A DNA stretch of 64,000 bases from Thermodesulfobacteriota bacterium (GTDB lineage: Bacteria; Desulfobacterota; Desulfobulbia; Desulfobulbales; SURF-16). The notes beneath the pieces are model-generated. The model searched no databases. It was not told the origin of the DNA and saw only the letters and a list, made by a program, of their open reading frames with translations. Both the position numbers and the translations under genes were made by a program. This document shows positions 42,103 to 61,140 of the stretch, piece after piece (the first letter of the stretch is position 1; every line of letters begins with the position of its first letter). The DNA is taken from the NCBI GenBank assembly GCA_039715015.1, contig JBDLIE010000005.1:1-64000 (forward strand). Direction: 5' to 3'.

Positions 42103-42690
42103 CTAGTTGTTTATGACCCGGTAATAACGGCCATGGGCACAGCTTTTACAAAGGGTTTTCCCGTCTGTTTCTACTTCGCGGCAATCCTGTACCCAATCAC
42201 CGCATCCGTCACATTGCACCCTTTTTAAAGGGCGGCCAGGCATATCTGCAGGGGGAATGGTGATCTCTACCTCTTCAATCTTAAAGAGCTCATCTTCAGG
42301 CATGACACGGTAGGCCTCAAGCTGTTGTTTATACTTTCCCTCCGCCTCCGGCACATATTTCTTGGCAAGCTCCCGGGATTCCTCCCGTGCGGTAATGCGT
42401 ACGGCTTTACCTGTCTCTAAGTTCACAAAGGTAGCAGCCATGATTCCATAATCCAGCCATTTCAAAGAGCGTTTGCCCAGGGTGCAACCAGTAACTGTCT
42501 GGATGGCATCGGTGGCGCAACGGTCGATTTCAACGAGGACATAAAACTTTTTGCGCTCACTGCCCTTGGGGTCTGAAATATCTATTTCCCTAAGACCAAT
42601 CATCGACATGCGAACGCCGATGACCTGTCCGGCACAGACATGGCCGTGGATGGTGGTGGAGTGTTCAAGAAGTTCTTCGAAAGTCTGCAT
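42103..42690 (-). CDS. FmdE-family protein with C-terminal zinc finger
   Basis: HGHVCAG, RCATDAIQ..TGCT.G, CxxC...CxxC. Confidence 0.88.
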   Translation of the reverse strand: MQTFEELLEHSTTIHGHVCAGQVIGVRMSMIGLREIDISDPKGSERKKFYVLVEIDRCATDAIQTVTGCTLGKRSLKWLDYGIMAATFVNLETGKAVRITAREESRELAKKYVPEAEGKYKQQLEAYRVMPEDELFKIEEVEITIPPADMPGRPLKRVQCDGCGDWVQDCREVETDGKTLCKSCAHGRYYRVINN

Positions 42691-43049: not shown

Positions 43050-44240
43050 TTACTCTTCTTTAATGGCCAGTAAAGGCTCAAGGCGGGCTAAACGGATCAC
43101 CGGCAGGGCGGCGCCGGCAAGACAAATCAAAACACCAGCCAGGCATCCCAAGGCGCTGATAATGATGTTTTGGCTCGATGTTAAAGAGGTAGCGCCTAGG
43201 CTGGTGAGGAGATTAAAGTCCTCAGCCAGAAAATAGATGAGATAATGGCCGACAAATATACCCAGGCAGGCACCAATAATACTGATGAAGAATGCCTCAC
43301 TGAGAAAAAGAGAAATGACGTGTGATTTCTGGGCACCAAGGGCGCGTAGGATACCAACCTCACGCCGCCGTTCGTTTGCCAGAGCGGAAAAGGTGGACCA
43401 AGCCAGAAGAATGGCCAGAAGTGATGAGATTAGAATAGTTATGGTGAATACTCGGACAATATCGCGCAAGGTTGTGCGAACATCTGCGCCGATATTACCG
43501 CGGGTCATAATGCCAACACGTGGATTGATATCACGGATTTTTGCCACCACCCGCTCGACATCAAAGCCTTCTTTGACTTTGAGAAAGACAATGGATATCT
43601 GGCCACGTTTATAGCTACCTAAAGCCTCATCAGTGATATCGTCAAGGTCTTCAAGGCGCATGAACAGGCCGTGGTCAAGACCGGTACCGGTGACCTCAAG
43701 ATGATCAACCATCTTTATTTCATTGCCGAAAAGGGCCATTGTGTCGATGAGCCCCAGGTATTCCCAGACATAATTGCCCACATAGACCTCTCCTTTCTTG
43801 AGAGGGGTAGGGGTTTTTATCCATGGTGTAATGACAAAATCTTCGTCTTGATTAAAGGCGATGATTTGGCCTTCGATGATAGAACAGCAACCGGAATCTA
43901 AGGTGTTAAGGTAGACATGGTAGGTGGAGTCGGCGATCTCATCCATTCCCTTTGTTTCATCATAAATCCCTCTATCCATGTAGAAGATCTTTTCCTTGCT
44001 CTCAAGGATGAACTCTTCAGCCATGGACTTTGCCTTGGAGGGCACAATAACAATATCGGCTCCCAGCCGTTTTGTCGCCTGGTCAAGGTCCTCCTGCACA
44101 GCCTGCTTAAAGAGCAGAGCGAAAACGAGAAGGGCCACGAGAAGGGCCACGGCAATAACCAGGACGATATTGCGAAATAATTTACGGGAAAATCCCTTCC
44201 AGGCAACAAGGGGAAGGGGAAGTCGACCAGGGTTGGACAT
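43050..44240 (-). CDS. MacB/FtsX-type ABC permease
   Basis: RLGADIIVVP-like segment, ERRREVGILRALGA, 4-TM topology, periplasmic SGCCS. Confidence 0.9.
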   Translation of the reverse strand: MSNPGRLPLPLVAWKGFSRKLFRNIVLVIAVALLVALLVFALLFKQAVQEDLDQATKRLGADIVIVPSKAKSMAEEFILESKEKIFYMDRGIYDETKGMDEIADSTYHVYLNTLDSGCCSIIEGQIIAFNQDEDFVITPWIKTPTPLKKGEVYVGNYVWEYLGLIDTMALFGNEIKMVDHLEVTGTGLDHGLFMRLEDLDDITDEALGSYKRGQISIVFLKVKEGFDVERVVAKIRDINPRVGIMTRGNIGADVRTTLRDIVRVFTITILISSLLAILLAWSTFSALANERRREVGILRALGAQKSHVISLFLSEAFFISIIGACLGIFVGHYLIYFLAEDFNLLTSLGATSLTSSQNIIISALGCLAGVLICLAGAALPVIRLARLEPLLAIKEE

Positions 44241-44259
44241 GTGAAGACCTTAAAGTACA

Positions 44260-44297
44260 AATAAAGAAAGGGAGACCTGAGTCTCCCTTTCTTTATT
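44260..44297 (-). terminator. Strong hairpin/terminator between the secreted-protein gene and the permease
   Basis: Perfect 17-bp stem aataaagaaagggagac / gtctccctttctttatt. Confidence 0.85.
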
Positions 44298-44319
44298 CAA
44301 TTATGGTGAAAAGGTTACT

Positions 44320-45468
44320 CTATTTCTTATACTCTGCATCCAAACCACAGAGTACAGCATGAACACCGTCTTCACCAGCGCCAATCTCTTCATCATGGCA
44401 GGCAAGACATACGGAGGTCGCTTTGCCGACGAATTTCTTGGCCTTCACATCATAGAGCTTGAGCTGACCGTCCATCAGATACTCATCTGGAGCAGGCTTA
44501 GTACGATCCTGGCAGTCCTCAGCAAAGATGGCCTTGGTCCTGGAGGTAACGACAACGTACTTGTCATCCGGGGTGAACATGGCGTCATGGGTCTCTTCCA
44601 GAGGAGGCATGGTCTCGGCATCAATGGTTTCCAAGGTGTTGGCATCAATAAGGAACATGATGTCACCGGTGGCATTGGCAATCATGGAAGAATCGTTTGA
44701 CCAGTACTGCCTAAAAGAAATAGTCTTCTTCTTGTTGCCGTCAGCAACGCCAGAGGCAAGGAGCTTTACTTTGCCTTTTTCAAGGGCTTTGGCATCGAGC
44801 ATTTTCAGGTGCAGTTTGCCGACACCGGTGCCGTAGCTGGCAAGAGAGGAGGAATCACTCTCGTTAATTGTGATGAGCATCTTGCTCATGTCTGGAGAGG
44901 TGGTGCCGTGAAAGTATTTATAGGGTACTTTGGGGTCAGCCTCAGAGCCTTCCAGGAAAACACGATGTTTGATCTTGAGATCTTTTTTGGTAAATACATC
45001 GATGTAGGCAGGGTTTGACATGGTGATGGGCATGAAATAATCTTTGGTCTGCCCTGATGCGCAGTACATCTTCTTGGTAACCTTGACTTGCTTCGGGGTG
45101 GGAACATTAACGTCCATGATAACCTCACCGGTGCGCAGATCTGTTTTGCCAACGTGGGTTTTGCCAGTGGCTGGGTCAAGTTTATAGGTAGACCAATACA
45201 TGGTGTTACGGTCTTTATAATCGATACGGGCATCGTGGACTGGATGGGACTCGCCATCACCAATATCAATTTTAGTAAGCTCATTACAGGTAATGGGGGA
45301 CTCTTTAGCTGGGTCTATGGTACAAACGGCCTTGGCAAAATGGCCACCCATGGCTGCTACATAAAAAGTAGCTTCGTAGGTTTTGCCTGCCATGGCGCCA
45401 GTTGCAATTCCTGCAGTGAGAGCAGTAGCGGTTACAGTGCTCAGCAATGCCTTTTTGGAAATCTTCAT
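44320..45468 (-). CDS. Secreted hypothetical protein, probable beta-propeller, with one CxxCH near the C-terminus
   Basis: GAGGAG RBS, Sec signal (AMA), blade-like motifs HGTTSPD / HDAMFTPDDKY, CLACH. Confidence 0.8.
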   Translation of the reverse strand: MKISKKALLSTVTATALTAGIATGAMAGKTYEATFYVAAMGGHFAKAVCTIDPAKESPITCNELTKIDIGDGESHPVHDARIDYKDRNTMYWSTYKLDPATGKTHVGKTDLRTGEVIMDVNVPTPKQVKVTKKMYCASGQTKDYFMPITMSNPAYIDVFTKKDLKIKHRVFLEGSEADPKVPYKYFHGTTSPDMSKMLITINESDSSSLASYGTGVGKLHLKMLDAKALEKGKVKLLASGVADGNKKKTISFRQYWSNDSSMIANATGDIMFLIDANTLETIDAETMPPLEETHDAMFTPDDKYVVVTSRTKAIFAEDCQDRTKPAPDEYLMDGQLKLYDVKAKKFVGKATSVCLACHDEEIGAGEDGVHAVLCGLDAEYKK

Positions 45469-45654
45469 TTTTTCTCCTCGCTTGAGTGTTGTCGCGATCT
45501 CTGTTGCAATCGCATTAACATTTGGATTCTGGAACAATGTGTCACTGGTAAAGGGATCAGAGAAGCCCTGTAGCAGCAGGTTTTACGCTCTCTTTTAGAC
45601 CTCTTTGGTTTTTCTCCAGTTACAGGAAAATCATGTTGCCAGAAAAAATACTTT

Positions 45655-45693
45655 GTGTGACAATCTGTCCCTAGTGTGACAAATTGTCACACT
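45655..45693. promoter_or_regulatory. Tandem operator in divergent promoter (RegA-box-like)
   Basis: Perfect palindrome AGTGTGACAA-A-TTGTCACACT (45673-45693) plus degenerate copy GTGTGACAATCTGTCCC. Confidence 0.75.
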
Positions 45694-45824
45694 GGAAGGT
45701 TCCGAAAATAAATGATTGCGAAAAATTTGCAACAAGAAAAAAGAGAAAAACCCTCCCTTTTCTTGTTTAAAGTTGATTCCTGTTAACGGGGTTATGATCA
45801 GTGGCAGGGGCTGGGAAAATAAAA

Positions 45825-46505
45825 ATGTATATCGAATGTGAAAACCTGAACAAAAAATACAAGTCTGAAGGGGCTGTTTTAACAGCAGTTGATCAAGTCA
45901 ATCTTCAGGTGAACAAAGGGGAGTTCGTCGTCATCTTGGGTCATTCCGGTTCTGGAAAGACGACGCTTCTATCATTAATTGGCGGATTAACCAAGCCCGA
46001 TGGCGGCACGGTTAGAATCGACAATATTGATAATTGGCAGCAGGCTGATGATGAGCTTGCTGTGATGCGCAATAAGAAGATCGGCTTTATTTTTCAATTT
46101 GCCAGTCTTATCCCCACCCTGACTGTTCTCGAGAATATTCTTTTACCTCTTTCCTTCACAAGCGACCCGCAAGGGGACAGGCAATATGCATTGGACCTTC
46201 TGGAGAGAGTCGGCCTCAGTGGCCGGCAGGATGATCTTCCCGGCCAATTGTCAGGCGGCCAGCAACGCCGTGTCGCCATTGCCCGTTCTTTTATAAATCG
46301 CCCAGATATTATTTTAGCAGACGAACCCACAGGTGATCTGGATGAAGAGACTGAGAAAGAAATTCTTGCCATTTTTAAGGATTTTAATAAACAGGGGATC
46401 ACTTTTCTTGTTGTAAGCCATAATAAAGATCTGGCTCTCAGTCAGGACAGACCGCGTATGTTAACCATGAAAAACGGCTCTTTAGCTGAGACTTCTTCTC
46501 CATGA
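45825..46505 (+). CDS. ABC ATP-binding protein (LolD/MacB type)
   Basis: GHSGSGKT, LSGGQ, LADEPTG. Confidence 0.95.
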   Translation: MYIECENLNKKYKSEGAVLTAVDQVNLQVNKGEFVVILGHSGSGKTTLLSLIGGLTKPDGGTVRIDNIDNWQQADDELAVMRNKKIGFIFQFASLIPTLTVLENILLPLSFTSDPQGDRQYALDLLERVGLSGRQDDLPGQLSGGQQRRVAIARSFINRPDIILADEPTGDLDEETEKEILAIFKDFNKQGITFLVVSHNKDLALSQDRPRMLTMKNGSLAETSSP

Positions 46506-46996
46506 AAAAACTTTTTTTATTGTGCACCCTGTTGCTATGTTTAGCCGCTTGCGGGCAGTCCCAACAGGCTCCAGAGCTGCAGGTCGGTGGACCAGCTCCT
46601 GGATTTTCCGGCCTTGATATTTCAGGTAATTCCTTTGACCTGGCTGATTTTTCTGGAAAGCCGGTTATTATTCGTTTTTGGTCAACTGAGTGTAATTACT
46701 GCCGGGCAGACACCCCTGTTTTTAATAAGTTGTACGCGAAATATCACGACAAGGGCCTACAAATTGCTTATATTAATACATTGTCAAGTTTGCCCCAGGT
46801 TAAAGAGTTTGTTGCTGATCTTGCTATTACATTCCCTGTCCTCATGGACGAGGATGGAACCATGGCGCGTAGCTACCAGGTGAAGCTTGTTCCCCAAACA
46901 ATAATTATCGATAAAAAACACAACATTGCTGCTGCTATTCTTGGCGGTGTCAGTGAAAAGGAAGTTATGGATTTGCTTCAGGAGGATTTGAAATAA
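46502..46996 (+). CDS. TlpA/ResA-type thioredoxin lipoprotein
   Basis: LAAC lipobox, FWSTECNYC, cis-Pro VP. Confidence 0.9.
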   Translation: MKKLFLLCTLLLCLAACGQSQQAPELQVGGPAPGFSGLDISGNSFDLADFSGKPVIIRFWSTECNYCRADTPVFNKLYAKYHDKGLQIAYINTLSSLPQVKEFVADLAITFPVLMDEDGTMARSYQVKLVPQTIIIDKKHNIAAAILGGVSEKEVMDLLQEDLK

Positions 46997-46997
46997 A

Positions 46998-47501
46998 ATG
47001 AGAACTTTGAAAAACATCTTTGTGGTCCTGTGTCTTGCTTTCTTGGCCTCTTCTGCTGTTGCCGTTGCCGAACCATTAGAAAATATTGCCGATGATAGCC
47101 GTTGCAATGTCTGTGGTATGTTTGTTGCCAAGTATCCCAATTGGCTCACCCAGGTTCATAGAGCCGATGGACAGGTTTCCCTTTTTGACGGGGTCAAGGA
47201 TATGATGGTCTTTTATTTCAACCCAGAGAAATATGGTGCCAAGGCAGACACTTTAAAGGATATTTGGGTAAAAGATTATTACACCATGAATTGGCTTGAT
47301 GGCCGTAAAGCCCTCTACGTTGTTGGTAGTGATGTTCATGGCCCCATGGGCCACGAATTCATCCCCTTTGCCAGTCATGAAGCAGCGGCATCTTTCTTAA
47401 AAGATCATTCTGGTAAAGCCATCCTTGCCTTTGATGATATTACCTCTGAAAAGGTGGAATCCATGCGCATGGGTATGAAGATGAAAATGAAGATGAAATA
47501 G
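46998..47501 (+). CDS. NosL-family metal chaperone with Met-rich tail
   Basis: CNVCGM, YVVGSDV.GPMG, C-terminal MRMGMKMKMKMK. Confidence 0.88.
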   Translation: MRTLKNIFVVLCLAFLASSAVAVAEPLENIADDSRCNVCGMFVAKYPNWLTQVHRADGQVSLFDGVKDMMVFYFNPEKYGAKADTLKDIWVKDYYTMNWLDGRKALYVVGSDVHGPMGHEFIPFASHEAAASFLKDHSGKAILAFDDITSEKVESMRMGMKMKMKMK

Positions 47502-47536
47502 AGTGCAGCCATCATCTCCATCTTCCTGTGCTCTTA

Positions 47537-47812
47537 ATGCGTCCATCCTCCCTTTTTTTCTTTGTTCTTTTCGCCCTGGCCGTTACTACTGTAACGCTAG
47601 CGGCCCATGGCCGTCATCGTGCCCTTAAGGAGAAGGACGCATATTTTGTGCGCGATAGCCTGACCAGAGAACTTGGTTTAACCGACCTATGTCTGGCCAC
47701 CGAAGCTCGTTACACCAGACATCCTGCCCTGAGTGATGATCTTGCCCCTTTTATGGATTATCCAGCAGCCCTGGAGCATTTTCCCTCAGGTCTCTTCTGG
47801 GCGCCCAAATGA
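47537..47812 (+). CDS. Small membrane-anchored hypothetical protein
   Basis: N-terminal hydrophobic helix, LTDLCLATEARYTRHP...EHFPSG; overlaps next start. Confidence 0.7.
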   Translation: MRPSSLFFFVLFALAVTTVTLAAHGRHRALKEKDAYFVRDSLTRELGLTDLCLATEARYTRHPALSDDLAPFMDYPAALEHFPSGLFWAPK

Positions 47813-48990
47813 AAGAATTCCTTGAAAAACAGACCAATATTCTTGATTATGCCCTGGCTTCGCTCTGGCGCCGGAAGGGGAAGAATCTTAGTGTTTTTTG
47901 TGTCTTTACCCTGGTTATCTTTCTCTTAGCCTCTTTCCAGTTTTTAACACGATCTCTGTTGGTGTCTGCTGCTGATACTTTGCAGCAGACACCCGAAATC
48001 ACCGTCCAACGCATGGTTGCCGGTCGTCAGGAAACAATCCCTGTTGCCTATGGTGAAAAGATTAAAGCAATCTTCGGGGTGACTAGGGTCAGTGAAAGAG
48101 TGTGGGGCTATAAATTTAACGAAGTAACCGGCGCCAACCTTACTGTGATGGCTCTTGCCGACTTTTCCAAAGACAATCAGGCTGCTCTTGCTGAGGGGCG
48201 TTTTTTGGTTCAGGGAGATGCTGGCCAGGCCCTTATTGGTCAAGGGGTTTTAAAAGATCTGGGTTTGGGGAAACGGCGCAGCTTTTCTTTTTTTAGACCA
48301 GATCTCACCCTGAAATCGTTTTCAGTCAGCGGTATTTTTGCTCCTGCAACCGATATACTGACCTATGATTTGGTTGTCATGAATATCGGCGATGGCCGTG
48401 ATCTTTTCGGACTCCAGCCTGATGTGGCCACTGATCTTCTTGTCGAAGTTGGAAACCCTGTGGAGATTGATACCATTGCTAAGAAAATCTCAACGATCTT
48501 GCCAGATACCAGAGTGGTTACCCGTCCGCAGATTTTAATGACATACCAGGCTGTTTTTAGCTGGCGTTCAGGTTTTGCTTCAGTGTGTCTGTTAACAGCT
48601 CTTGCTGCCTTTATTATCTTGGCCTGGGACAAGGCCTCCGGCATGTCGCCTGAAGAACGGCGGGAAATTTCTATTCTGAAAATCCTTGGTTGGCAGACCC
48701 CTGATGTTTTAGCAGTTCGGTTCTGGGAAAGTTTTGCCATGGCACTGGTTGCCTTTGTCTCTGGTAATATTCTGGCCTATATCCATATTGGTTATTTCCA
48801 TGCAGCCCTTTTTCGTTCGGTGATGATGGGTTGGTCTGTGCTCCGTCCCACTCTTGATATTGTTCCGGCTGTATATTCTACGGACCTTTTCTTGCTCTTT
48901 TCTCTCTCCGTGCTTCCTTATTTGGCAGCCACGGTAATCCCTGCCTGGCGCTGTGCCTCAGTTGCCACTGATTCTGCGCTGAGGGGGTAA
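47809..48990 (+). CDS. MacB/FtsX-type ABC permease
   Basis: ERREISILKILGW, 4-TM topology with large periplasmic loop. Confidence 0.9.
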   Translation: MKEFLEKQTNILDYALASLWRRKGKNLSVFCVFTLVIFLLASFQFLTRSLLVSAADTLQQTPEITVQRMVAGRQETIPVAYGEKIKAIFGVTRVSERVWGYKFNEVTGANLTVMALADFSKDNQAALAEGRFLVQGDAGQALIGQGVLKDLGLGKRRSFSFFRPDLTLKSFSVSGIFAPATDILTYDLVVMNIGDGRDLFGLQPDVATDLLVEVGNPVEIDTIAKKISTILPDTRVVTRPQILMTYQAVFSWRSGFASVCLLTALAAFIILAWDKASGMSPEERREISILKILGWQTPDVLAVRFWESFAMALVAFVSGNILAYIHIGYFHAALFRSVMMGWSVLRPTLDIVPAVYSTDLFLLFSLSVLPYLAATVIPAWRCASVATDSALRG

Positions 48991-48994
48991 GTTC

Positions 48995-49678
48995 ATGATT
49001 GTTGAGCTCGAGGATATTGTTAAGATTTATAACCAGGGTGAGGCTAATGAAGTAACGGCCCTTGAGCAGGTTGATCTCACCATTGAGCATGGCTCCATGG
49101 TCTGTCTCAAGGGGCCCAGTGGCTCGGGGAAATCGACACTGCTTTCCATTATTGGCTGTATTTATCCGCCTACCAGCGGCAGGGCCGTTATAGGCGGCAA
49201 GCAGTTGTCACGTCTGCCAGATCGTTTTTTGACCATCCACCGCCGGCAGACCATCGGCTTTATCTTTCAACAATTCAATATTTTGCCGAAGCTTTCTGTT
49301 TTTGAGAATATTGTTCTGCCTCTTCTGCCTTTGGGGGTCTCTCCTGCAAAGCGAAGAGCCATGGCTGAACCTCTGCTTGAACGTTTTGCCATTAAGCATC
49401 GTCAGAATTTTCCTGCCGGCTCTATTTCTGGCGGTGAACTGCAAAGAGTCGCAATTGCCAGGGCCTTAATTAATAATCCGCCTATCATCATTGCCGATGA
49501 ACCCACAGCACATCTTGATAGCAACCTTACCAGGGGTTTTCTGCAAACAATGATGGAGCTGAAGGAGGAGGGGAAAACCATCATTATTGCCTCCCACGAC
49601 CCGCTTGTCACCGAAGATGCCAGAGTGGACAAGATGTTTAATGTTCTGGATGGCAGGGTGAGCCAGGATGTTTCTTAA
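48995..49678 (+). CDS. ABC ATP-binding protein (LolD/MacB type)
   Basis: GPSGSGKS, ISGGE, IADEPT. Confidence 0.95.
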   Translation: MIVELEDIVKIYNQGEANEVTALEQVDLTIEHGSMVCLKGPSGSGKSTLLSIIGCIYPPTSGRAVIGGKQLSRLPDRFLTIHRRQTIGFIFQQFNILPKLSVFENIVLPLLPLGVSPAKRRAMAEPLLERFAIKHRQNFPAGSISGGELQRVAIARALINNPPIIIADEPTAHLDSNLTRGFLQTMMELKEEGKTIIIASHDPLVTEDARVDKMFNVLDGRVSQDVS

Positions 49679-50678
49679 CCCATGGAGTCTAGCCCTGTGT
49701 CTGCTTAGCGGACTCAGTATCTTTTTGATTGGGGTGGCCTGTAAAACGGCGATCAGGGTCATCCGCCAGTGGAACCCGGCCGCTGATAGCCAACAACAGA
49801 TTGAGCTTGAATCGGAGATTTGGCTGTCATCCACCCTGGTCCAGTATGGGCTTGGCTTTCAGATTATTTCCATGTTTCTCTACGTTCTGGCTGCAGATTC
49901 TTTTGCCCAGATGCTTTCCGGGGCCATGTGTGCCACCGGGTCTCTGCTGGCCAACGATTATGGCATTCCGCTTCTTGTTGTCAAAATTGCCGGCATGTTC
50001 CTGTACGGCTTGTGGATTGTTCTTCATCAGCTCGATATCAGCAGTGAGGAGTATCCTTTAGTACGGGTTAAATATGTCCTCCTTCTTTTTTTGCTGCCGC
50101 TGCTTGTCAGTGACACAGTCCTGTTGATTCTCTACCTGGCTGGATTGGAACCAGATATCATTACATCGTGCTGTGCAATTATTTTTGATGAAGGGGCCGG
50201 GGGCACGGTTCAGAATCTTTTCGGTGGACGGGGAGGGGAGGGGAGTTTGGCCTTTTATTACGGCTGGGCGATGCTTCTTTTCTGTCTTGGTTTTCTTGCC
50301 TGGTGGTGGCAGAAATTGGCCGCTTATCTTATCTACGGGATTGGTGTTGCCTTTTTTGGTGTTCTGGCACTGGAGACTCTCATCACTGTATTTTCATCGT
50401 ATATATACGCCATGCCCTTCCATAATTGCCCTTTTTGCATACTGAAGAAAGAGTATGGATATATTGGTTTTTTTATCTACATCCCCCTCTTTGTTGCTGT
50501 TTTCTGTGGCATCACTCCCATGCTTCTTGAGCCGTGTAAAAGAAAGAGTTCCATTGCCAGTACAGTAGCAACCATGCAGAAAAAACTTGTGGTTGTCTCC
50601 CTGGCCTCTCTGGCATTTTATGTCACCCTCTCGTCCTATCATTATCTTGCCTATACCCTGTTGGGAGGGGAGGGGTAG
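49668..50678 (+). CDS. Polytopic membrane protein with Cys motifs, unknown function
   Basis: About 8 TM helices; GAMCATG, ITSCC, HNCPFC. Confidence 0.8.
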   Translation: MFLNPWSLALCLLSGLSIFLIGVACKTAIRVIRQWNPAADSQQQIELESEIWLSSTLVQYGLGFQIISMFLYVLAADSFAQMLSGAMCATGSLLANDYGIPLLVVKIAGMFLYGLWIVLHQLDISSEEYPLVRVKYVLLLFLLPLLVSDTVLLILYLAGLEPDIITSCCAIIFDEGAGGTVQNLFGGRGGEGSLAFYYGWAMLLFCLGFLAWWWQKLAAYLIYGIGVAFFGVLALETLITVFSSYIYAMPFHNCPFCILKKEYGYIGFFIYIPLFVAVFCGITPMLLEPCKRKSSIASTVATMQKKLVVVSLASLAFYVTLSSYHYLAYTLLGGEG

Positions 50679-50730: not shown

Positions 50731-51258
50731 TCAGAGGGTGGGGGGGAATTTTTGGAGTTTGCGCTGCAGGGTGCGGCGATGAATACCCAGCTTCTTAGCG
50801 GCCTGTGAAATATTATTGTTGCAGTCGCTTAAAACACGGCTGATATGCTCCCACTCAACCCGGGCAAGGGATGGAGCACTGATGCTGTCATCTTCCATTT
50901 CACGGAGATCTTCCGATTCAAAGGCAGCTATAATATCTTCAACTTCAGCAGGTTTGGTGAGATAGCCGATTGCTCCAAGCTTAATCGCCTTGGTGGCTGT
51001 GGCAATGGAGCCATAACCCGTCAAAACTACGGCTCGTAGATCGGGGTGGTGCCGCATGCCAGTCCGGATGACGTCAAGTCCTGACTTCCCTTCCATCTTG
51101 AGATCCACAACGGCAAAGGCGGGCTTGTGTCGCGCAATGATCTCCACAGCCCCGATGTAGTTACTCGCAGTCTCTACGTCGAAGCCACGGCGCTCTAGGG
51201 CCTTGGATAAACGGTTCCGGAAAATATCCTCGTCATCAACAAGTAAAATGGTCGGCAT
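50731..51258 (-). CDS. regA: RegA/PrrA/ActR-family response regulator
   Basis: LTGYGSIATA, SLARVEWEHI.RVL..C..NIS.AA..LGIHRRTLQRKL. Confidence 0.9.
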   Translation of the reverse strand: MPTILLVDDEDIFRNRLSKALERRGFDVETASNYIGAVEIIARHKPAFAVVDLKMEGKSGLDVIRTGMRHHPDLRAVVLTGYGSIATATKAIKLGAIGYLTKPAEVEDIIAAFESEDLREMEDDSISAPSLARVEWEHISRVLSDCNNNISQAAKKLGIHRRTLQRKLQKFPPTL

Positions 51259-51263: not shown

Positions 51264-52619
51264 TTACACCTCCAAATCAGAGTCTGTTTGGGTGGCTAAT
51301 GATTTGCTGAAAGAGATAGTTATAGTTGTTCCTGTGTCTTCATGGCTTTCAATATCGAGGGCCCCTTCGAGCTGGGTTGCCAACGATTTTGCCAGAAAAA
51401 GGCCAAGTCCCATACCCTTGCCAACAGGTTTTGTGGTGAAGAAAGGGTCTGTCGCCTGTTCAGCAACTTCTTGTGACATACCACAACCTTGATCAGTTAC
51501 TATGAAATAAATGTACTCGCCATCCTCTTTACATTCAAGGGTGATTTCTCCGTCAGGCGGGCTTGCATCTGCTGCATTGGATAACAGGCCCTTTAATGAC
51601 CAAGAGACAGCATGAGAGGGGACATGGAGTTGTTTGCTTGGAAGCATATTGTTTACAACAAGGTTTTGAGAGATATTGCCAAGCAATTCTCGAGCGCTTT
51701 CGATGAGTTCATCAGTGGTACTGGGAGTATGTTTTTCCCCTTGGATAGCGCCGGCATCTGCAGACATTTGAAAGAGGATCTTTTTGCAACGGTTGGTTTG
51801 TTCCCGAATGAGCTGGGCGTCATCTAAGAGATCTTTGTCATAGATTTCATTCTCACAATGATAGACCATTTCCCCTGATGCCAGACCAATGGTGGCGAGG
51901 GGGGTGGAGAGTTCATGGGCAGCCCCTGCAGCCAGGGTGGCAAGAGCGCTAAGCTTGTCGTTTTGCAGCTTTTCCTGGCGCAGCTTGGCAATGGTACGAT
52001 GATAGTCCCTGAGGGATTGTTGGATGCGTGAAGCGAAAAAGGTGATCAAAACGGCACTAACAGCATAGGCAAACCACATACCCTGTAGATGAAGATCCAT
52101 ATTAAAATTAGTGATATTGCAAACCTGCTGAACCTCCTGACTTGCCCCAGCTCCACTTTGTTTGAGAAGTGAGGGCAGAAACATGCCCCCATAAGAAAGA
52201 ATTGTAGAGATGGAAAGGCCCCAGGCAAGAAGAGATGATAACAAGATGGCGCCAAGGGTGATATGGACCAGATAGATAAAGGTAAATGGGTTCATTGTGC
52301 CGCCAGTAATATAGAGCAACCCTGTGAGAAGGATTATGTCGCCATATAAAGTCAGAGGCAGAAGATATTCAGGTGGTGGCTTTTGGTGGCTGTGAAGACG
52401 AAGAGCAAGGGCGGTGTTGGTAATAATTTCAACAATAATTACAGTACTGACGGCAAAGATAGGAAGGTCAAGATGGAAAAAGAATGAACCAATGGCAATG
52501 GTGAGAATCTGGCCAGCAACGGCCCACCATCGCAATTTGACTAACCAGTTAAGGCCAATACTCCGCGTATCATGGAGATTTTGTTGTGATTCTAAGCTGG
52601 TAAAAAGTGAGTGATGCAT
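51264..52619 (-). CDS. regB: RegB/PrrB/ActS-family redox sensor kinase
   Basis: LRWWAV.GQ, GGTMNPF, AAHELSTPL, RCKKIL, GMGLGLF. Confidence 0.88.
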   Translation of the reverse strand: MHHSLFTSLESQQNLHDTRSIGLNWLVKLRWWAVAGQILTIAIGSFFFHLDLPIFAVSTVIIVEIITNTALALRLHSHQKPPPEYLLPLTLYGDIILLTGLLYITGGTMNPFTFIYLVHITLGAILLSSLLAWGLSISTILSYGGMFLPSLLKQSGAGASQEVQQVCNITNFNMDLHLQGMWFAYAVSAVLITFFASRIQQSLRDYHRTIAKLRQEKLQNDKLSALATLAAGAAHELSTPLATIGLASGEMVYHCENEIYDKDLLDDAQLIREQTNRCKKILFQMSADAGAIQGEKHTPSTTDELIESARELLGNISQNLVVNNMLPSKQLHVPSHAVSWSLKGLLSNAADASPPDGEITLECKEDGEYIYFIVTDQGCGMSQEVAEQATDPFFTTKPVGKGMGLGLFLAKSLATQLEGALDIESHEDTGTTITISFSKSLATQTDSDLEV

Positions 52620-53491: not shown

Positions 53492-55588
53492 ATGATTCTG
53501 CGATGCAATGAACGTACTTTATTGCGCGCTGCCCTGGTTACCGGGACAGCGGCATTCTTTGTTTTGCCGCAACAGGTTTTTGCGGCTGAAGACCAGGTTG
53601 TCGAACTCAGTGACGTTGTTATCACGGCCTCCAGGATCAGTCAGCAGGTTAAGGATGCCCCGGTTGCCATCAGTATTGTTTCCGAACAGGAACTGGACAA
53701 AATAAAGGCCAGGAATCCGCAAGAGTTTCTTTCCAGGGTCCCAGGTGTCAACTCCAGTAACTTTGGCGGTGAATCAGAGCTTACCTCCATCAGGATACCA
53801 ACCCATTTCACCAATCCATATACCGTTGTGTTGGTTGATGGCGTGCAGTATGGCAGCTATGGTTCCGGTAGCTCGAGCCAGTTTCGGGAGATTAACCTCA
53901 ACAACATCGCACGTATCGAGGTGATCAAAGGGCCTGCCTCAGCTCTGTATGGCAGTAACGCCATCGGCGGTGTCATTAACGTGATCACCAAGGAGCCTTC
54001 AGCTTTCCCCCAGGCCAGGATCTGGTCGGAACTGGGAGATTACAGGCAATGGCGGGCCGGCGTCTCCGGCAGTGGCGGATTTGATAAACTCAGCTATTTT
54101 ATCGACGCCAATCACACCGATACGGAAGCTGCCCGGGAGCATAGTGGTGTTGATAAGCAGTCTGGCTCCGTGAAGTTGAACTATACCGCCACTGATGTGT
54201 CATTGCTGACCTTTAAAATAGACTATGTCACTGTCGAGAATGACTCCCCAGGCTCTATTAACCAGGATGATTTCGAAGAAGACTGGCTGCAGAGTTATCA
54301 TAATTTTGCCTACAACAAGTCAGACAGGGTGGCACCTGCCCTCTCCTATGTCCATTATCTTGATGCTGCTGAGATGCGGGCAATTTTTGTCTTACGGGAC
54401 ACTGAGGAGGAAACCATACCTAACTACAGCATTCGCCAGCTGACCTTTGGCCCATTTCCACGCCCCTATATTGGCAGTTATACAGAGGATGACAGTCTCG
54501 ATATGAGCCTGCAGCTCTTATATAGTCACGACCTCTCCCTTTGGCGCAGCAAGGTAATTGTCGGCCTTGATACGGAGTATGGCAGCAAATATTCAAAGAC
54601 CTATGACCTTTCGGTATCCTATGACAGCGCTCTCAACAAATATGAGAGCTATACCTTAGGGGACCTCGACAAGTCCTATGATATGACAACCAAGGTGGCA
54701 GCGCCATATCTGCAGCTCGAGAGTTCCCCTTGGAAAAAGCTGCGCATAACTGTCGGCGCCCGCTATGACTCGGCCCGGTATGAAGTTGAAGATCAATTGA
54801 GCAACAGCATTGAAAACAAGCGGGGGTTTGCCAAGACCAGCCCCAAAGCCGGTGTTACCTATGATATTAATGCCAACCTCAACACCTATGTCAGTTACTC
54901 AAAGGGCTTTGTTGTGCCCACCACTAGTCAGCTGTGGACCTCGCGCTATGACAACGCCGATCTGGATCCTGAAAATGCCGAAAATTATGAGGTCGGTCTG
55001 CGCAGCAGCTTTATGAACAGACGTCTTAGGCTCGACATCTCTGTTTATGATATGACTATCACAGATAAGATCGTTATCAACAACACCCCGGCGCCGAATA
55101 CCCGCTACATAAATGCGGGTAAGAGCTCACAGAAAGGCATCGAGGTAATGACCTCTTACGCGCCGCTGGAAAGCGTTCAGTTGAGTGTTGCCTACACATA
55201 TGCCCGCAACAAGTATGAATCTTATAGTGATCAGGGTGTCGATTATAGCGGCAACTGGCAACCGCGCTCCCCTAAACATCACCTCAACGCCCGCCTGTCT
55301 GTATTCCCAGTCGACGGTGTAGAGGTCGAGCTGGAAATGGATGAGGTCAGCAGCCAGTTTGCTGACGACGCCAACCTTTTTGAGTACACCAGGCCTACCC
55401 TTTTTAACCTCCGCGCCTCATACTACTGGAAGCGCTTCACTTTCTGGGGCCATATCCTGAATCTTACCGATAAGGAGCATGCAAACTATATGAGCTATAG
55501 TACCTCGGAAGACACCATGACCCTCTTTCCTGGTATTGCCAGAACGGCATTTGTCGGCCTTTCCTATCGGTTCGGAGGAGACAAGTAG
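53492..55588 (+). CDS. TonB-dependent outer-membrane receptor
   Basis: Signal peptide, DVVITASR TonB box, RIEVIKGPASALYGSNAIGGVIN plug, C-terminal YRF. Confidence 0.95.
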   Translation: MILRCNERTLLRAALVTGTAAFFVLPQQVFAAEDQVVELSDVVITASRISQQVKDAPVAISIVSEQELDKIKARNPQEFLSRVPGVNSSNFGGESELTSIRIPTHFTNPYTVVLVDGVQYGSYGSGSSSQFREINLNNIARIEVIKGPASALYGSNAIGGVINVITKEPSAFPQARIWSELGDYRQWRAGVSGSGGFDKLSYFIDANHTDTEAAREHSGVDKQSGSVKLNYTATDVSLLTFKIDYVTVENDSPGSINQDDFEEDWLQSYHNFAYNKSDRVAPALSYVHYLDAAEMRAIFVLRDTEEETIPNYSIRQLTFGPFPRPYIGSYTEDDSLDMSLQLLYSHDLSLWRSKVIVGLDTEYGSKYSKTYDLSVSYDSALNKYESYTLGDLDKSYDMTTKVAAPYLQLESSPWKKLRITVGARYDSARYEVEDQLSNSIENKRGFAKTSPKAGVTYDINANLNTYVSYSKGFVVPTTSQLWTSRYDNADLDPENAENYEVGLRSSFMNRRLRLDISVYDMTITDKIVINNTPAPNTRYINAGKSSQKGIEVMTSYAPLESVQLSVAYTYARNKYESYSDQGVDYSGNWQPRSPKHHLNARLSVFPVDGVEVELEMDEVSSQFADDANLFEYTRPTLFNLRASYYWKRFTFWGHILNLTDKEHANYMSYSTSEDTMTLFPGIARTAFVGLSYRFGGDK

Positions 55589-56640
55589 TGCCTTCTTTTT
55601 CAGGTGGTATACCGGGGCTTAAGGGCTCGGTCTGTTTTCTGACTTCAGTTATGCCGTTTCTTTTGCTGGGCGTTGCGACAGTGACTGAGGCGCAAGGGCT
55701 TCCCCCTTTGCGCCTCGCCCTTTCGCCCACTGCCCCTGTCGGTGAAGAATGCCTAGCGCATGGTCAAGGCGGCCCTGCCAAGGGCGGCAAGGCTGTAGAT
55801 GACCGGCGGCCGGTACTTGAGTCAGAGCATAGACCACTGCCTGTCCGCACCTACCACTTCAACGCTCATCGTCGCTTGGCCGATGTAAAGGCCTATGTCC
55901 GGCATCCCGATGGCACAGTAGATGTGCCTGAACTTCGCCTGGGGGCCAATCCGCAACTTACTTTTAAAACACCCTTTGGCGATGGCCCCAATCATGGGGC
56001 ACACAATGTCTATGTTGTCGAGCAGGGCGTTGAGGGAGATGTCCTGGTTGTCCGCACCGCAAAATGGATTGTCATGCACCATAGCTGCGGTTGGGGACAT
56101 GATCAAAAATTTAATGAGCAGCTCACCCAACCTCAACCTCTTGAGTCCATTCCCATGGAAATTCTGATCTCAGACCTTTGGGACGGCAATTTCCACTTCC
56201 GGGTGACCACAGGTCAAAAACTTTCAATAACAGTGCTGCGGAATGGTCACCCCCTTGCCAAAGCCCGGGTAAGCGTGAGGAGTGAGCAAGGCTGGGTCAA
56301 AGAGGTAGATGCAGATAAAGATGGTGTCGCCACCTTTCAGCTGATCAGGGATTATTACCCCACCAGATGGCAGGAGTTTCACCGCACCCGGCGGGGCGAG
56401 TTTTTGGCCACGGCAACCTACGAGGCAGAGGAGCACGGCGAATATAAAGGGATACCGTATGGGCGTGTGCGCTATATCACAACCCACCCCTGGACCTATG
56501 GCCCTTCAAGCTGGGACTATGCCTCCTATTCGATGGGTTTGCTGATCGCCGTCATTGCCATGGCCCTTACCGGTGGCGGTGTATTTATCTATCGTGAACG
56601 GCGCAAAAAGCCTTATCAGGAGATTGTTTTTGAAGAGTAA
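55588..56640 (+). CDS. Periplasmic protein with C-terminal membrane anchor (DUF4198-like, tentative)
   Basis: GGAGGAG RBS before GTG; MHHSCGWGH; G.PLA.A.V...D.DG.ATF; C-terminal TM helix. Confidence 0.7.
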   Translation: MPSFSGGIPGLKGSVCFLTSVMPFLLLGVATVTEAQGLPPLRLALSPTAPVGEECLAHGQGGPAKGGKAVDDRRPVLESEHRPLPVRTYHFNAHRRLADVKAYVRHPDGTVDVPELRLGANPQLTFKTPFGDGPNHGAHNVYVVEQGVEGDVLVVRTAKWIVMHHSCGWGHDQKFNEQLTQPQPLESIPMEILISDLWDGNFHFRVTTGQKLSITVLRNGHPLAKARVSVRSEQGWVKEVDADKDGVATFQLIRDYYPTRWQEFHRTRRGEFLATATYEAEEHGEYKGIPYGRVRYITTHPWTYGPSSWDYASYSMGLLIAVIAMALTGGGVFIYRERRKKPYQEIVFEE

Positions 56641-57619
56641 ACTGCAGACCGCCATCAATAACTGTAATGTCAGCCGCTTTCGGTTTTACGTGCAGATCTT
56701 CAGCTTTGCACTCCTCGTTTATGGTGGATACCTGGCCATAAATATTGGCGACCAGTTGCCAACCTTTGCGTGTGTGTTCGATCAAATGAGGGGAGGGGCC
56801 TGCTACCTCATGGGCCTGCAGCATCAGATGACCACCCCCTTCAAGAGCTATTTCAGCGGCCGGGGCATTGGTATGCTGACTGGGCTGCTGACTTTTTTTC
56901 TCTTTTTTATCGCCCTCAACAAGGCCTGGTGCGGTTTTGTTTGCCCCCTTGGCACCCTTCAGGACTGGCTGAGCAGCCTGCGCCGTAAATTCGGGATCCG
57001 GTACGCAACGTACTCGGCACAGAATTTCAAGGGCCTCGGTACCATCAAGTATATCCTGCTGGCCCTGTTGATTCTTCTCCCCATGGCCATAGGCAACAGC
57101 TTTTTCGGCCTGCCCAAGCTCAATCATGATTTTGGCGTGCCGTTCTGCATGATTTGTCCGGGGAGAACCCTGCTCCCGGTTTTTCATGGTGATTTTTCGC
57201 AGTTCATCATCGATTTCAGTTCAAAGACCAAGATGGTCTTCACGGCCCTGGGTATGGCGGTGACAGGTATGTTATTGGCCGGCGCCTTTGCGAAGAAGCG
57301 GTTCTTCTGCCTCTTTTGCCCGATGAGCGCCTTTCACTATATCTTCCACAAGGCAGGCTTGCTGCGCCTTACCAAGGATGGCAGCAAGTGCACCCGTTGC
57401 GGAAACTGTTACCGGGCCTGTGATGTTGGTATCCATGCCATCGCCGATGACTTGACCCATAAAAATATTATCAAGGATGATTGCATGATGTGCCTGAAAT
57501 GCATTGAAGCATGCCCGGAGGAAGATTGCCTGAAGGCTTCTTTTTTTGCAATGCCGGTTTATGAGTCAAGCGCCCAAGGGTTTTTTAAAAGGATGCAGGG
57601 GAAATGTCATGGAAAATGA
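56630..57619 (+). CDS. Membrane 4Fe-4S protein (NapH/MauN/CcoG-like)
   Basis: WCGFVCP, FCMICP, FCLFCP, CTRCGNCYRAC, CMMCLKCIEACP; TTG start after GGAG. Confidence 0.9.
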   Translation: MKSKLQTAINNCNVSRFRFYVQIFSFALLVYGGYLAINIGDQLPTFACVFDQMRGGACYLMGLQHQMTTPFKSYFSGRGIGMLTGLLTFFLFFIALNKAWCGFVCPLGTLQDWLSSLRRKFGIRYATYSAQNFKGLGTIKYILLALLILLPMAIGNSFFGLPKLNHDFGVPFCMICPGRTLLPVFHGDFSQFIIDFSSKTKMVFTALGMAVTGMLLAGAFAKKRFFCLFCPMSAFHYIFHKAGLLRLTKDGSKCTRCGNCYRACDVGIHAIADDLTHKNIIKDDCMMCLKCIEACPEEDCLKASFFAMPVYESSAQGFFKRMQGKCHGK

Positions 57620-58922
57620 ACGACTAAGGCGAGTGCGGAAGACGACCCTTCTTCATTTGGCCATGGAGGCCAAGAACACCCTGCTGAAGATAGAAGAAGA
57701 GTTTCCCGATAACCCGGCGGCAATGGACTACTTCTACACGCTCTATAAGGATGTATTCAACGACGAGCCGAAGCTGCCCACCGATAAGAAAATTATCGGG
57801 ACGATGTGCGTCCAGGTCCCCCAAGAGCTTATACATGCTGTTGGGGCATTCCCCTTACGGTTATGCAATGGGGCTAGTGCCTATGATCAGGTAGGTGCCG
57901 AGTTTATGCCTGCCAAGTCCTGCCCTGTGGTGCGGGCGACAATGGGCATGCTTCATGTCGACCAGGCGCTGTGGGGGGAATCCCTGCAGGCCGTCGTCAT
58001 CCCTACCACCTGCGACCAAAAGAAAAAATCATGCCAGATTCTTGCCGATATGGGCTACCCAGTCTATGCCCTGGACATGCCAGCGACCAAGGAGAGCGAG
58101 GCCTCTCGTTTTTATTGGCAGGAGTCGATAAAAAAATTCACCCTGGATATGCAAAAAATAACCGGGGTGAAAATAACTGCAAAGCGTGTCCAGGCAGCCA
58201 TAGCAAAAGTAGCCTCAGCATCATCCCTGTACCGGAAGTTGCAGGAATTGCGAAAATCTGATTATGCCCTGATTCTTGGCAAGGATATGTTTTTGGTCAC
58301 CAATGCCTATTTTTTTGATGAAATTGATCGCTGGCAGCAGTCTGTCAGCCGGCTGGTCGCCGAATTGGAAGAACGTAAACGAAACGGCTTTAGCGCCGGC
58401 AAGCGCCAGGCCCCACGCATCCTTTTTACCGGTTCGCCACCAATATTTCCCAACCTCAAGGTTCCCATTCTGGTGGAACAGGCCGGCGGGGTTATCGTGG
58501 CAGATGAAACCTGCTCGTCGGGAAGACTTCTCTATGATTCCGTTGCCTTTGATGAAGCAACTCTCAACGACATGATTCCCGCTCTTGCCGACCGCTCCCT
58601 GAAGCCCTGCACCTGCCCATGTCTCACCCCAAACAAGGACCGGCTGCGGAAGCTCATTAACATGGCCAAAGAATTTGAGGCCGATGGCGTTGTCTATCAG
58701 GCTTTTTCTGGTTGCCTCCCCTATGAAATGGAGCAGAAGCAGGTTGCCAAGGCCCTGGCCGAAGCCGAAGTGCCGATGCTATATGTTGAAACCGACTATA
58801 GCCCTGAAGATATGGGGCAGCTTTCCACACGGATAGAGGCCTTTATCGAATCGATCCTGGCCCGGAGAAGAAAAAAGAAGGTTGCCCAGCTTCATCAGAA
58901 GGCAGGTGAGGAAGGCTCGTGA
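57609..58922 (+). CDS. 2-hydroxyacyl-CoA dehydratase D family; double-cubane cluster protein (DCCP)-like reductase
   Basis: GTMCVQVP, RLC, SCP, TTCD, ETC, CTCPC, SGC, ETDYS..D.GQL.TRIEAF. Confidence 0.8.
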   Translation: MENERLRRVRKTTLLHLAMEAKNTLLKIEEEFPDNPAAMDYFYTLYKDVFNDEPKLPTDKKIIGTMCVQVPQELIHAVGAFPLRLCNGASAYDQVGAEFMPAKSCPVVRATMGMLHVDQALWGESLQAVVIPTTCDQKKKSCQILADMGYPVYALDMPATKESEASRFYWQESIKKFTLDMQKITGVKITAKRVQAAIAKVASASSLYRKLQELRKSDYALILGKDMFLVTNAYFFDEIDRWQQSVSRLVAELEERKRNGFSAGKRQAPRILFTGSPPIFPNLKVPILVEQAGGVIVADETCSSGRLLYDSVAFDEATLNDMIPALADRSLKPCTCPCLTPNKDRLRKLINMAKEFEADGVVYQAFSGCLPYEMEQKQVAKALAEAEVPMLYVETDYSPEDMGQLSTRIEAFIESILARRRKKKVAQLHQKAGEEGS

Positions 58923-60332: not shown

Positions 60333-60338
60333 GGGGGA

Positions 60339-60773: not shown

Positions 60774-61140
60774 GTTCAATACCTTGAATGTGATCCCCCT
60801 CGTCGATGTGATGCTGGTCTTGCTGACCATTGTTTTGATGACATCGACTTTTATTGCGGTGGGCGGACTTTCCATTGAATTGCCGCAAGCCGCCGGGGAA
60901 AAAGTGGAAATGTTAAAGACGCTGACCATCGAAATAGATAGTGAGGGCACCATATTTCTTGAGGCCGCGGCAATATCACTTGCCGGGTTGACTGATTCCT
61001 TGGCCGGAACCGATAAGGAGACACCCCTAATCATCCGGGCCGACAAGAAATTGGCCTTACAACATTTTGTTGAGGTGATGAGTGCGGCAAAGGCTTTGGG
61101 TTTCACCAAGGTAAGCCTGCAAACCGAGGTGACCTCATGA
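60760..61140 (+). CDS. exbD: ExbD
   Basis: NVIPLVDVMLVLLTIVL. Confidence 0.92.
   Translation: MDETEFNTLNVIPLVDVMLVLLTIVLMTSTFIAVGGLSIELPQAAGEKVEMLKTLTIEIDSEGTIFLEAAAISLAGLTDSLAGTDKETPLIIRADKKLALQHFVEVMSAAKALGFTKVSLQTEVTS

Follow-up and report, generated by a model that had tools for sequence, protein, structure and literature searches.

What does a Cu(I) chaperone of the NosL family serve at a locus devoid of nosZ? The question is raised by a cluster of nine genes in a DNA stretch of 64,000 nucleotides, hereafter the window, which covers positions 1 to 64,000 of contig JBDLIE010000005.1 from a Thermodesulfobacteriota bacterium of the order Desulfobulbales (assembly GCA_039715015.1). A reading made from the sequence alone had placed at positions 43050-50678 two ATP-binding cassette (ABC) systems, a thioredoxin lipoprotein, NosL and three further proteins. 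Pfam and NCBIfam scans of the window proteins locate all nine genes there, in the families named. Its claim that nosZ and nosD are missing from the window also holds, as Pfam scans of 57 window open reading frames (ORFs) and BLAST with the Paracoccus nos set found neither, and no nosY either. The genes, termed G1 to G9 by position (Table 1), form two divergent operons, G1 and G2 being on the minus strand and G3-G9 on the plus strand. Our verdict is that the cluster is a variant of NosL-based metal-center assembly built on MacB-type ABC transporters, with its own, previously undescribed client, the CxxCH-bearing propeller protein G2. This verdict is tentative, and we put it somewhat below an even chance.

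The G2 protein is predicted to be exported by the Sec pathway, has a signal peptide, and carries a C354-x-x-C357-H358 motif near its C-terminus. It is the sole ORF of at least 80 residues with a CxxCH in the window. The mechanical ORF extends to a TTG at 45537, but the homologues begin with the ATG at 45468, and a GGAGA precedes this codon. G2 returns no sequence match in NCBIfam, in the PDB sequences or, noise aside, in Pfam at E up to 10. The family is narrow: 749 homologues lie in the near-length range, and in a library of 1.84 billion representatives they fall into just 113 clusters at 50% identity. The relatives bear the source names 'hypothetical', 'YncE family' and 'cytochrome c domain-containing', the last being the UniRef label of two of them. 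The AlphaFold (AF2) model of G2 (predicted local distance difference test, pLDDT, 86.9; predicted TM-score, pTM, 0.85) is all-beta with 24 strands. Judging from the strand order (DSSP) and a YVTN-like repeat pattern, it is probably a propeller of six four-stranded blades, with residues 374-380 as the closing strand. A fold search reports only generic WD40/YVTN propellers among the 50 matches listed (TM-score at most 0.5). The PDB profile search has a single match, one repeat of the hydrazine synthase beta subunit (5c2v_B, E 7.7e-5), and the language-model neighbors are YncE-like and quinohemoprotein amine dehydrogenase beta-like proteins. The closest fold and profile neighbors are 5c2v_B and the quinohemoprotein amine dehydrogenase beta subunit (1jju_B), both of which differ from G2 in being seven-bladed, heme-free and devoid of a CxxCH or a Cys/His ring, at TM-scores of at most 0.5.

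The conservation of G2 is concentrated on a small set of polar residues. Its CxxCH is invariant in 29/29, 24/24 and 37/37 sequences of three alignments. H294, D79, D193 and D333 are, with the CxxCH, invariant in 24 relatives down to 28% identity, and H43, H78, C136, M150, H187, R253, D295 and C374 are conserved in at least 90% of these same distant sequences, among which P0123 is devoid of C136 and C374, and P0136 of C374 alone. H75, H105, H220 and H370 are also conserved within the Desulfobulbales. By strand order, six of these residues (C374, H78, C136, H187, R253 and H294) each fall in the innermost, first strand of a different blade. This strand lines the mouth of the central channel in propellers of this type, and the CxxCH loop, which precedes the closing strand, would lie on the same face. 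Long or fused homologues retain the set as well: of 13 examined, 12 have nearly every one of the 15 key positions unchanged, and nine of these 12 have all 15, while a fusion with a caspase domain (Peptidase_C14, P0135) has five of the 15 changed. In tandem double propellers of the G2 type, each half has its own CxxCH...LCG closure, and in two relatives a second CxxCH follows the first by 22 residues, a multiheme-like spacing. Since the key residues are kept, along with the CxxCH, in distant, duplicated and fused relatives, the conservation of G2 suggests a site that is catalytic or bears a cofactor, with a single heme of the c type, rather than a passive binding module. The distant long relatives comprise P0121, P0122, P0125, P0127, P0129, P0157 and P0135, some of them with fn3 or caspase fusions. 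They were considered as possible fusions with an ABC permease or an extra cytochrome, but are whole-propeller duplications or fn3/caspase fusions instead, and therefore provide no Rosetta-stone link.

The G2 gene rarely stands alone. A genome scan with the G2 alignment finds a relative encoded in 190 genomes, and the best 80 of the loci, taken with 10 kb on each side, belong mostly to the Desulfobulbales (Desulfurivibrionaceae, Desulfobulbaceae and Desulfocapsaceae), with a few Nitrospirae and one Desulfoarculaceae. Among isolates, Hydrosulfovibrio ferrireducens (L041) has the cluster, Thiovibrio frasassiensis has at least G2, and Desulfogranum mediterraneum has G2 with G1 and G3 alone nearby. 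BLAST of the window proteins against all ORFs of these loci indicates that gene order and orientation recur. Partners were counted within 9 kb of G2 in the 54 loci that are assessable, having at least 6 kb upstream and at least 1.4 kb downstream of it. All nine genes are present, in the same order, in 42 of the 54; these 42 come from three families (Desulfurivibrionaceae, Desulfocapsaceae and Desulfobulbaceae), with protein identities of 50-60%. G1 accompanies G2 in 53. The arrangement far exceeds chance, and co-occurrence elsewhere, the absence of which would have refuted the sequence-only reading by its own terms, is thereby established. The remaining loci have only G1, G3, G4 and G5 (four), only G1 and G3 (three) or only G1 (two). 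One has no partner, one (L046) is split into halves 7 kb apart, and one misses G4 alone. L019, L071 and L078 are reduced to G1-G2-G3 despite good flanks, and the reduced loci are dispersed among the complete ones in the G2 tree. The identities of the partners to their window counterparts co-vary with that of G2 across loci (r 0.41-0.86). Such a pattern is in keeping with block inheritance, but would be seen among related genomes in any case. Two metagenome-assembled genomes (MAGs) contain, next to a cluster that is full or nearly so, an extra copy of G2 on a different contig (L074 with L072, L011 with L048). The extra copy is alone in L011, and is accompanied by G1 but not by G3 in L074. As the same MAG also carries a full or near-full cluster, at least some of the 'minimal' loci are extra G2 copies and not an ancestral form. 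These copies support a client-like behavior of G2.

Two pairs of genes encode the ABC modules, G1/G3 and G7/G8. The permease G1 matches FtsX (2.3e-22, 79.7 bits, cut-off 25.5) and, below the cut-off of 27, MacB_PCD (21 bits over residues 27-237), and its closest solved sequences are YtrF, MacB and LolF. G7 matches MacB_PCD (2.4e-8, 35 bits, cut-off 27), LolC/E-like models (9e-10) and, just below the cut-off of 25.5, FtsX (23.7 bits), and returns no PDB sequence match. The ATPases G3 (ABC_tran 9.5e-36; LolD 5.9e-64) and G8 (ABC_tran 1.8e-32; LolD 2.5e-54; MacB 1.2e-53) score below the equivalog cut-offs of the LolD and MacB models. With an FtsX-type permease, a periplasmic core domain and a LolD/MacB/FtsE-type ATPase, both modules have the features of type VII transporters. 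G1 and G7 share 24% identity, over their C-terminal transmembrane part only, and G3 and G8 share 37%; these low values indicate two distinct ABC sets rather than a recent duplication. In G1, C118, C119 and C373 are invariant in 37/37 orthologues, those of the reduced loci included, and at least 95% conserved in 74 sequences. The C118-C119 pair is located in the periplasmic domain between the first and second transmembrane helices. G7 has no conserved periplasmic Cys. No MacA-type adaptor or TolC-type outer-membrane gene is found among the nine, and Pfam and NCBIfam report no adaptor domain in the neighbors.

The assignment of G5 to the NosL family is clear (PF05573, 1.5e-34, 119.6 bits, cut-off 24). 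It shares 30% identity (E 8e-15) with the NosL of the Paracoccus nosZDFYL cluster, with the CGM motif and M117 aligned. Across 66 sequences, conservation reaches 95% or more at C36, C39, M41, M117 and M162, the first three forming the motif C36-x-x-C39-G-M41, and the C-terminal tail is rich in Met. The Cu(I) ligands of NosL, a Cys-x-Met motif and a distal Met, correspond in G5 to C39-G-M41 and M117. G5 has no lipobox; its signal peptide ends with ...ASSAVAVA-EP, a cleavage site without Cys, while NosL is described as a lipoprotein through an N-terminal lipobox Cys in excerpts of PMC7558416 and PMC13685413. No association of G5 with nosZ or nosDFY is seen in the window or within the 80 loci, where NosZ, NosD and NosY are unmatched. 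Next to it, G4 has the thioredoxin fold (AhpC-TSA 4.7e-26; Redoxin 2.1e-24), the CxxC active site (C64-N-Y-C67) and the lipid anchor (lipobox LAAC, Cys17) of a TlpA/ResA protein, ResA being its best NCBIfam match (1e-30) and TlpA reaching 2.6e-10. In 63 sequences, C17, C64 and C67 each show a conservation of 95% or higher. For G6, neither NCBIfam nor, noise aside, Pfam at E up to 10 gives a family, and an E-x-R-Y-x-R-H-P motif is conserved in 48 sequences. The small Cys-containing anchor protein seen at this position earlier is indeed present, but its single Cys is less than 95% conserved. The frames of G6 and G7 (stop over start) and of G8 and G9 (by 11 nt) overlap, which suggests coupled translation. 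The start of G3 is likely the ATG at 45825.

G9, which is also devoid of Pfam matches up to E 10 apart from noise and of NCBIfam matches, has 887 homologues, all named 'hypothetical'. Its AF2 model (pLDDT 85.6) comprises about eight long helices and does not match any PDB fold (best E 0.15, TM-score at most 0.31), so that neither G2 nor G9 has a solved structural relative. The invariant residues of G9 are C88, H120, C168-C169 and H252-x-C254-x-x-C257, which include five Cys. The positive-inside rule predicts a periplasmic location for the three loops that carry them. Thiophilic motifs thus recur across G1, G4, G5 and G9. A structure search of the Atlas with G9 lists CcsA, NrfI and CcmF-type proteins at TM-scores of 0.35-0.38. 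An assignment of G9 as CcsA-, CcdA- or DsbD-like was rejected on these scores, together with the lack of a Pfam match and of a PDB fold, and the Cytochrom_C_asm (WWD) domain of CcsA-type heme handlers was not found (Pfam, E up to 10).

The best explanation of these features is a self-contained periplasmic enzyme with its maturation module, the client being G2. In the cluster, a soft metal, probably Cu(I), would be supplied by NosL and inserted into a heme c propeller enzyme by a line that the ABC modules drive and the TlpA-like protein protects, a proposal for which the balance, in our estimate, is close to even but on the negative side. The sequence-only reading had suggested an ATP-driven machinery inserting metal or sulfur into an unknown periplasmic enzyme. 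The machinery is reasonable in view of the NosL alignment, the thiophilic motifs and a MacB-type precedent in clade III nosZ clusters (below), but the client is more likely the cluster's own G2, the key residues of which are conserved to 28% identity and which travels with G1. Background for such a line is at hand, as TlpA-type thioredoxins hold the cysteines of copper sites reduced and mechanotransmission is the way in which MacB-type ABC transporters handle cargo in the periplasm. G2 would be exported unfolded and would probably bear one covalent heme c on the invariant CxxCH in the propeller-closing loop. A second, thiophilic site, most likely for Cu(I), would be formed by C374, H78, C136, H187, R253 and H294 with H43 and M150. 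The lipoprotein thioredoxin G4 would keep the periplasmic Cys of G2, G1, G5 and G9 reduced, while G5 would bind Cu(I) and transfer it to the membrane machinery. MacB-type modules would need no movement of a substrate across the membrane and would use ATP-driven motion of their periplasmic domains instead. G7/G8 with G6 and G9, and G1/G3 with its Cys-Cys pair, could in this way relay the metal into G2, as NosDFY does for NosZ. We infer heme attachment, metal identity, transfer order and catalysis by G2, next to families, conservation, synteny, motifs and a propeller fold that are observed. As for the substrate, a small oxyanion or gas of sulfur or nitrogen is our guess.

The nearest precedent is the maturation of NosZ, in which NosL hands Cu(I) to NosD-NosFY and then to NosZ through an ATP-driven conformational change (excerpts of PMC13685413 and PMC7558416). 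As described in these excerpts, NosDFYL, the system of clades I and II, resembles the cluster in that NosL stands beside an ABC transporter that loads a Sec- or Tat-exported beta-propeller enzyme without importing its cargo. It differs by NosD, the ABC-2-type NosY and NosZ, none of which is matched here. In turn, the cluster has FtsX/MacB-type permeases, two full ABC sets, a NosL without lipobox, an added TlpA-like reductase and two added membrane proteins without family, and its client carries a CxxCH and is devoid of a cupredoxin domain. A second precedent is provided by the clade III ('lactonase-type', L-) nosZ clusters, which lack nosDFYL and contain two ABC components, one of them of the MacB type (PMC13477213 and, in excerpt, PMC13685413). 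Such clusters, with b-type cytochromes, are described from Desulfobacterota, Nitrospirota and other phyla, and an excerpt of PMC12569097 reports that the clade III proteins are detected by NosZ hidden Markov models (HMMs). By these descriptions, the clade III clusters share with the present one a divergent propeller enzyme, an occurrence in Desulfobacterota and Nitrospirota and a MacB-type ABC, but differ in the absence of nosL, the presence of b-type cytochromes and the detection of their enzyme by NosZ HMMs, whereas G2 matches no NosZ model. Going by citing papers, G2 would be set apart from the clade III L-NosZ (He et al. 2025, Nature 646:152), and how far this separation holds is the main uncertainty regarding novelty.

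Other known systems share single features with the cluster. Like G1/G3 and G7/G8, MacB, LolCDE and FtsEX combine a LolD/MacB-like ATPase with a four-helix permease of the FtsX type, the periplasmic domain of which is large. The cluster differs from them by the absence of a MacA-type adaptor, a lipoprotein-release partner or an EnvC-like partner, by the invariant Cys-Cys of G1 and the CxxCH propeller partner, and by NCBIfam scores far below the equivalog cut-offs. MccA, ascribed to Hermann et al. 2015, is said to be an octaheme sulfite reductase with heme c and a Cys-ligated Cu(I), from a sulfur-metabolizing anaerobe. It is similar to what is proposed for G2 in being a periplasmic enzyme with c-type heme and Cu(I), a likeness that is functional speculation only, and differs by its eight hemes and the lack of a propeller; a multiheme ORF is also absent from the window.

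Several observations weigh against the proposed loading line. The cofactors of G2 are all read from motifs, and its residue ring is derived from the DSSP strand order, not from coordinates. Alignment of G2 with clade I NosZ by hhalign returns a probability of 0.16%, no known copper propeller enzyme is among the 50 fold matches listed, Pfam and NCBIfam report no NosZ model, and its 382 residues contain neither a cupredoxin (CuA) domain nor any other second domain. A copper propeller akin to NosZ or thiocyanate dehydrogenase was accordingly rejected for G2 as a matter of homology, with the fold search, PDB profile and hhalign all against it, and is retained as a functional analogy only. Only four His outside the CxxCH are conserved family-wide, hence a seven-His site resembling CuZ is not general. 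Two complete ABC systems exceed what the nos precedent requires. The three loci with only G1 and G3 and the four without G6-G9 indicate that the linkage to NosL and TlpA is not obligatory. Finally, copper-resistance genes neighbor the cluster in one of the 80 loci, L024, from the isolate 'Thermodesulfobacteriota bacterium B35', where a multicopper oxidase and CopB are encoded directly after G9 and in its orientation (1907-4442); two sister loci end short on that side. As a general feature of the cluster, such neighbors were rejected.

Among the alternatives, the one that survives best assumes that G2 is a periplasmic adaptor of G1/G3, as NosD is for NosFY or LolA for LolCDE, the copper or sulfur being destined to an enzyme encoded elsewhere. 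The presence of G2 beside G1 in all but one of the assessable loci is what an ABC partner would show, and its nearest structural and language-model neighbors are non-catalytic propeller subunits. An adaptor, however, should have no use for a CxxCH that never varies, nor for a His/Cys/Arg/Asp set that is kept even in duplicated and fused relatives. Moreover, no candidate client is found within 10 kb on either side, where NosZ, NosD and NosY are unmatched and ORFs with at least three CxxCH occur in only 10 of the 80 loci, and the extra G2 copies stand alone (L011) or without the ATPase G3 (L074). We consider this explanation rather unlikely.

The cluster could instead be a dedicated set for cytochrome c maturation, in which the ResA-like G4 reduces the CxxCH of apo-G2, one ABC module exports or presents heme, G9 handles heme, and NosL is incidental or binds another ligand. 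The ResA match of G4, the invariance of the CxxCH and the Atlas list for G9 are in line with it, and HrtBA is a transporter that handles heme. The low TM-scores of that list, without a Cytochrom_C_asm domain or a PDB fold match, speak against a heme handler; NosL, the Cys-Cys pair of G1 and the five Cys of G9 are left unexplained, and a private heme lyase is normally unnecessary for a standard CxxCH. Such a set is quite unlikely. We rate as equally improbable a role in copper or silver homeostasis or detoxification, in which NosL, TlpA and Cys-rich proteins capture Cu(I), MacB-type pumps expel it, and G2 binds the metal or oxidizes Cu(I). It would account for the multicopper oxidase and CopB of L024, for a MerR-family regulator that adjoins G9 in five loci and for the sequence ATACCCCCGTGAGGGGTAT in the intergenic region of L039, which may resemble CsoR-type operators. 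But copper-resistance genes adjoin the cluster in that one locus of the 80, the cluster lacks a MacA/TolC-type adaptor or outer-membrane gene, and the strict CxxCH and polar ring of G2 are unlike known metal sponges. That two unrelated operons, propeller with ABC and NosL/TlpA/ABC set, merely stand back to back, as the three loci with only G1 and G3, the four without G6-G9 and the split L046 might suggest, is very improbable, since the 42 complete loci extend over three families at 50-60% identity and the two halves share components, G3, the ATPase paired with G1, being transcribed with G4-G9.

The regulation of the cluster may differ between clades. A shared operator had been proposed for the divergent intergenic region, and a perfect 19-bp palindrome, GTGTGACAA-A-TTGTCACAC, is indeed located at 45674-45692, with a related half-site at 45655-45670. 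It is unique in the window, and 0/100 shuffles reach two matches. It is, however, missing from all 80 related loci, and was rejected as a conserved operator. Another motif, TACCAC-N3-GTGGTA, is absent from the window and occurs exactly once in 24 of the 80 loci, 125-370 bp upstream of the start of the G2 match (L016, L019, L020, L029, L035-L037, L041, L042, L046, L048, L050, L053, L057-L059, L067, L069, L071-L073, L076, L077 and L079, which include the reduced L019 and L071). It looks like a putative clade-specific operator of a repressor. The pair of genes that follows G9 resembles RegA (ActR/PrrA/RegA, 1.8e-55) and RegB (ActS/PrrB/RegB, 1.9e-66), both below the equivalog cut-offs. A tie to RegBA as a general feature, as the sequence-only reading assumed, is not borne out, because just 11 of the 80 loci, this one included, have a close homologue of RegA (60-92% identical) next to G9; the pair is a candidate regulator in this sub-clade only. 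L044, L054, L062 and L068 carry a further paralogue of NosL, 39-42% identical to G5, immediately ahead of the RegB/RegA genes beside G9 (about 1.5-2.2 kb), so that NosL and RegBA are associated there a second time. In L015, L026, L031, L042 and L076, the MerR-family regulator beside G9 is accompanied by a pentaheme protein of about 500 residues (five CxxCH, weakly NapC/NirT-type).

Farther away, the suggested tie to a Psr-like enzyme is likewise unsupported: the molybdopterin oxidoreductase starts at 63545, 13 kb off, beyond an unrelated and non-syntenic TonB cluster. Neither this molybdoenzyme nor the TonB-receptor cluster, which were considered as parts of the system, is syntenic with the nine genes in relatives. 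The TonB cluster is in itself an unusual uptake set that combines a TonB system with a radical-type ATPase/dehydratase pair. On the other side, the FmdE-like gene that adjoins G1 recurs in 13 of the 80 loci as a homologue (72-90% identical) at most about 7 kb away from G2. The coordinates of all these features are collected in Table 1.

Table 1. The nine genes of the cluster, followed by other features of the window
Feature	Positions	Strand	Description
G1	43050-44240	-	MacB/FtsX-type (type VII) ABC permease, 396 residues
G2	44320-45468	-	Sec-exported beta-propeller (predicted), 382 residues, C-terminal CLACH
Divergent intergenic region	45469-45800		between G2 and G3
G3	45801-46505	+	LolD/MacB/FtsE-type ABC ATPase
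G4	46502-46996	+	TlpA/ResA-like periplasmic thiol-disulfide oxidoreductase, lipoprotein
G5	46998-47501	+	NosL-family Cu(I) chaperone, PF05573
G6	47528-47812	+	94 residues, N-terminal hydrophobic segment, no family
G7	47809-48990	+	second MacB/FtsX-type permease, 393 residues
G8	48995-49678	+	second LolD/MacB-type ABC ATPase
G9	49668-50678	+	membrane protein, 336 residues, about 8 transmembrane helices, no known family or fold
RegA-like	50731-51258	-	redox two-component pair, with the next
RegB-like	51264-52619	-	redox two-component pair, with the previous
FmdE-domain protein	42103-42690	-	C-terminal DksA/TraR-type zinc finger; adjoins G1
TonB cluster	53492-61871	+	TonB-dependent receptor, weak DUF4198-like protein, membrane ferredoxin (Fer4_5), HgdD-like dehydratase component with BcrAD/BadFG-type activator ATPase, DsbD_2, ExbB/ExbD/TonB
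TorD/NarJ-type chaperone and molybdopterin oxidoreductase	62893-64000	+	chaperone gene, then start of the oxidoreductase, cut by the window end
Futalosine-type menaquinone genes	17386-23151	+	two radical-SAM CofH/MqnC-like proteins, amidohydrolase, VitK2_biosynth, UbiA prenyltransferase

The literature searched contains no description of this nine-gene cluster. No report was found of NosL in Desulfobulbaceae, in cable bacteria or, among the papers listed, in sulfur disproportionation, none of NosL with thiocyanate dehydrogenase, and nothing relevant combining NosL, FtsX and a beta-propeller; in three papers on Desulfobulbales, propeller, copper, FtsX and MacB are unmentioned. A six-bladed propeller is present in the cytochrome operons of partners of anaerobic methanotrophic archaea (ANME), which were set aside for their different gene set. 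The proposed NosL-fed loading of G2 can be carried further, to a statement that we hold to be on the doubtful side of possible. G2 would then represent a new class of oxidoreductases, six-bladed, with a heme c beside a Cys/His copper or copper-sulfur site in the channel. Its assembly would be the first NosL-dependent line in which MacB-type ABC transporters replace NosDFY, the Cys-Cys pair of the permease being the hand-over point, and its small sulfur or nitrogen substrate would be central to the sulfide-oxidizing or sulfur-disproportionating lifestyle of the Desulfobulbales.

If the assembly reading is true, NosL has clients besides NosZ, and type VII ABC transporters serve as engines of cofactor assembly, at which the clade III nosZ clusters hint likewise. 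The Desulfobulbales, among them sulfur disproportionators, sulfide oxidizers and relatives of cable bacteria, perform steps of periplasmic sulfur chemistry that have no assigned enzyme, and the cluster offers a concrete, purifiable candidate for such an enzyme.

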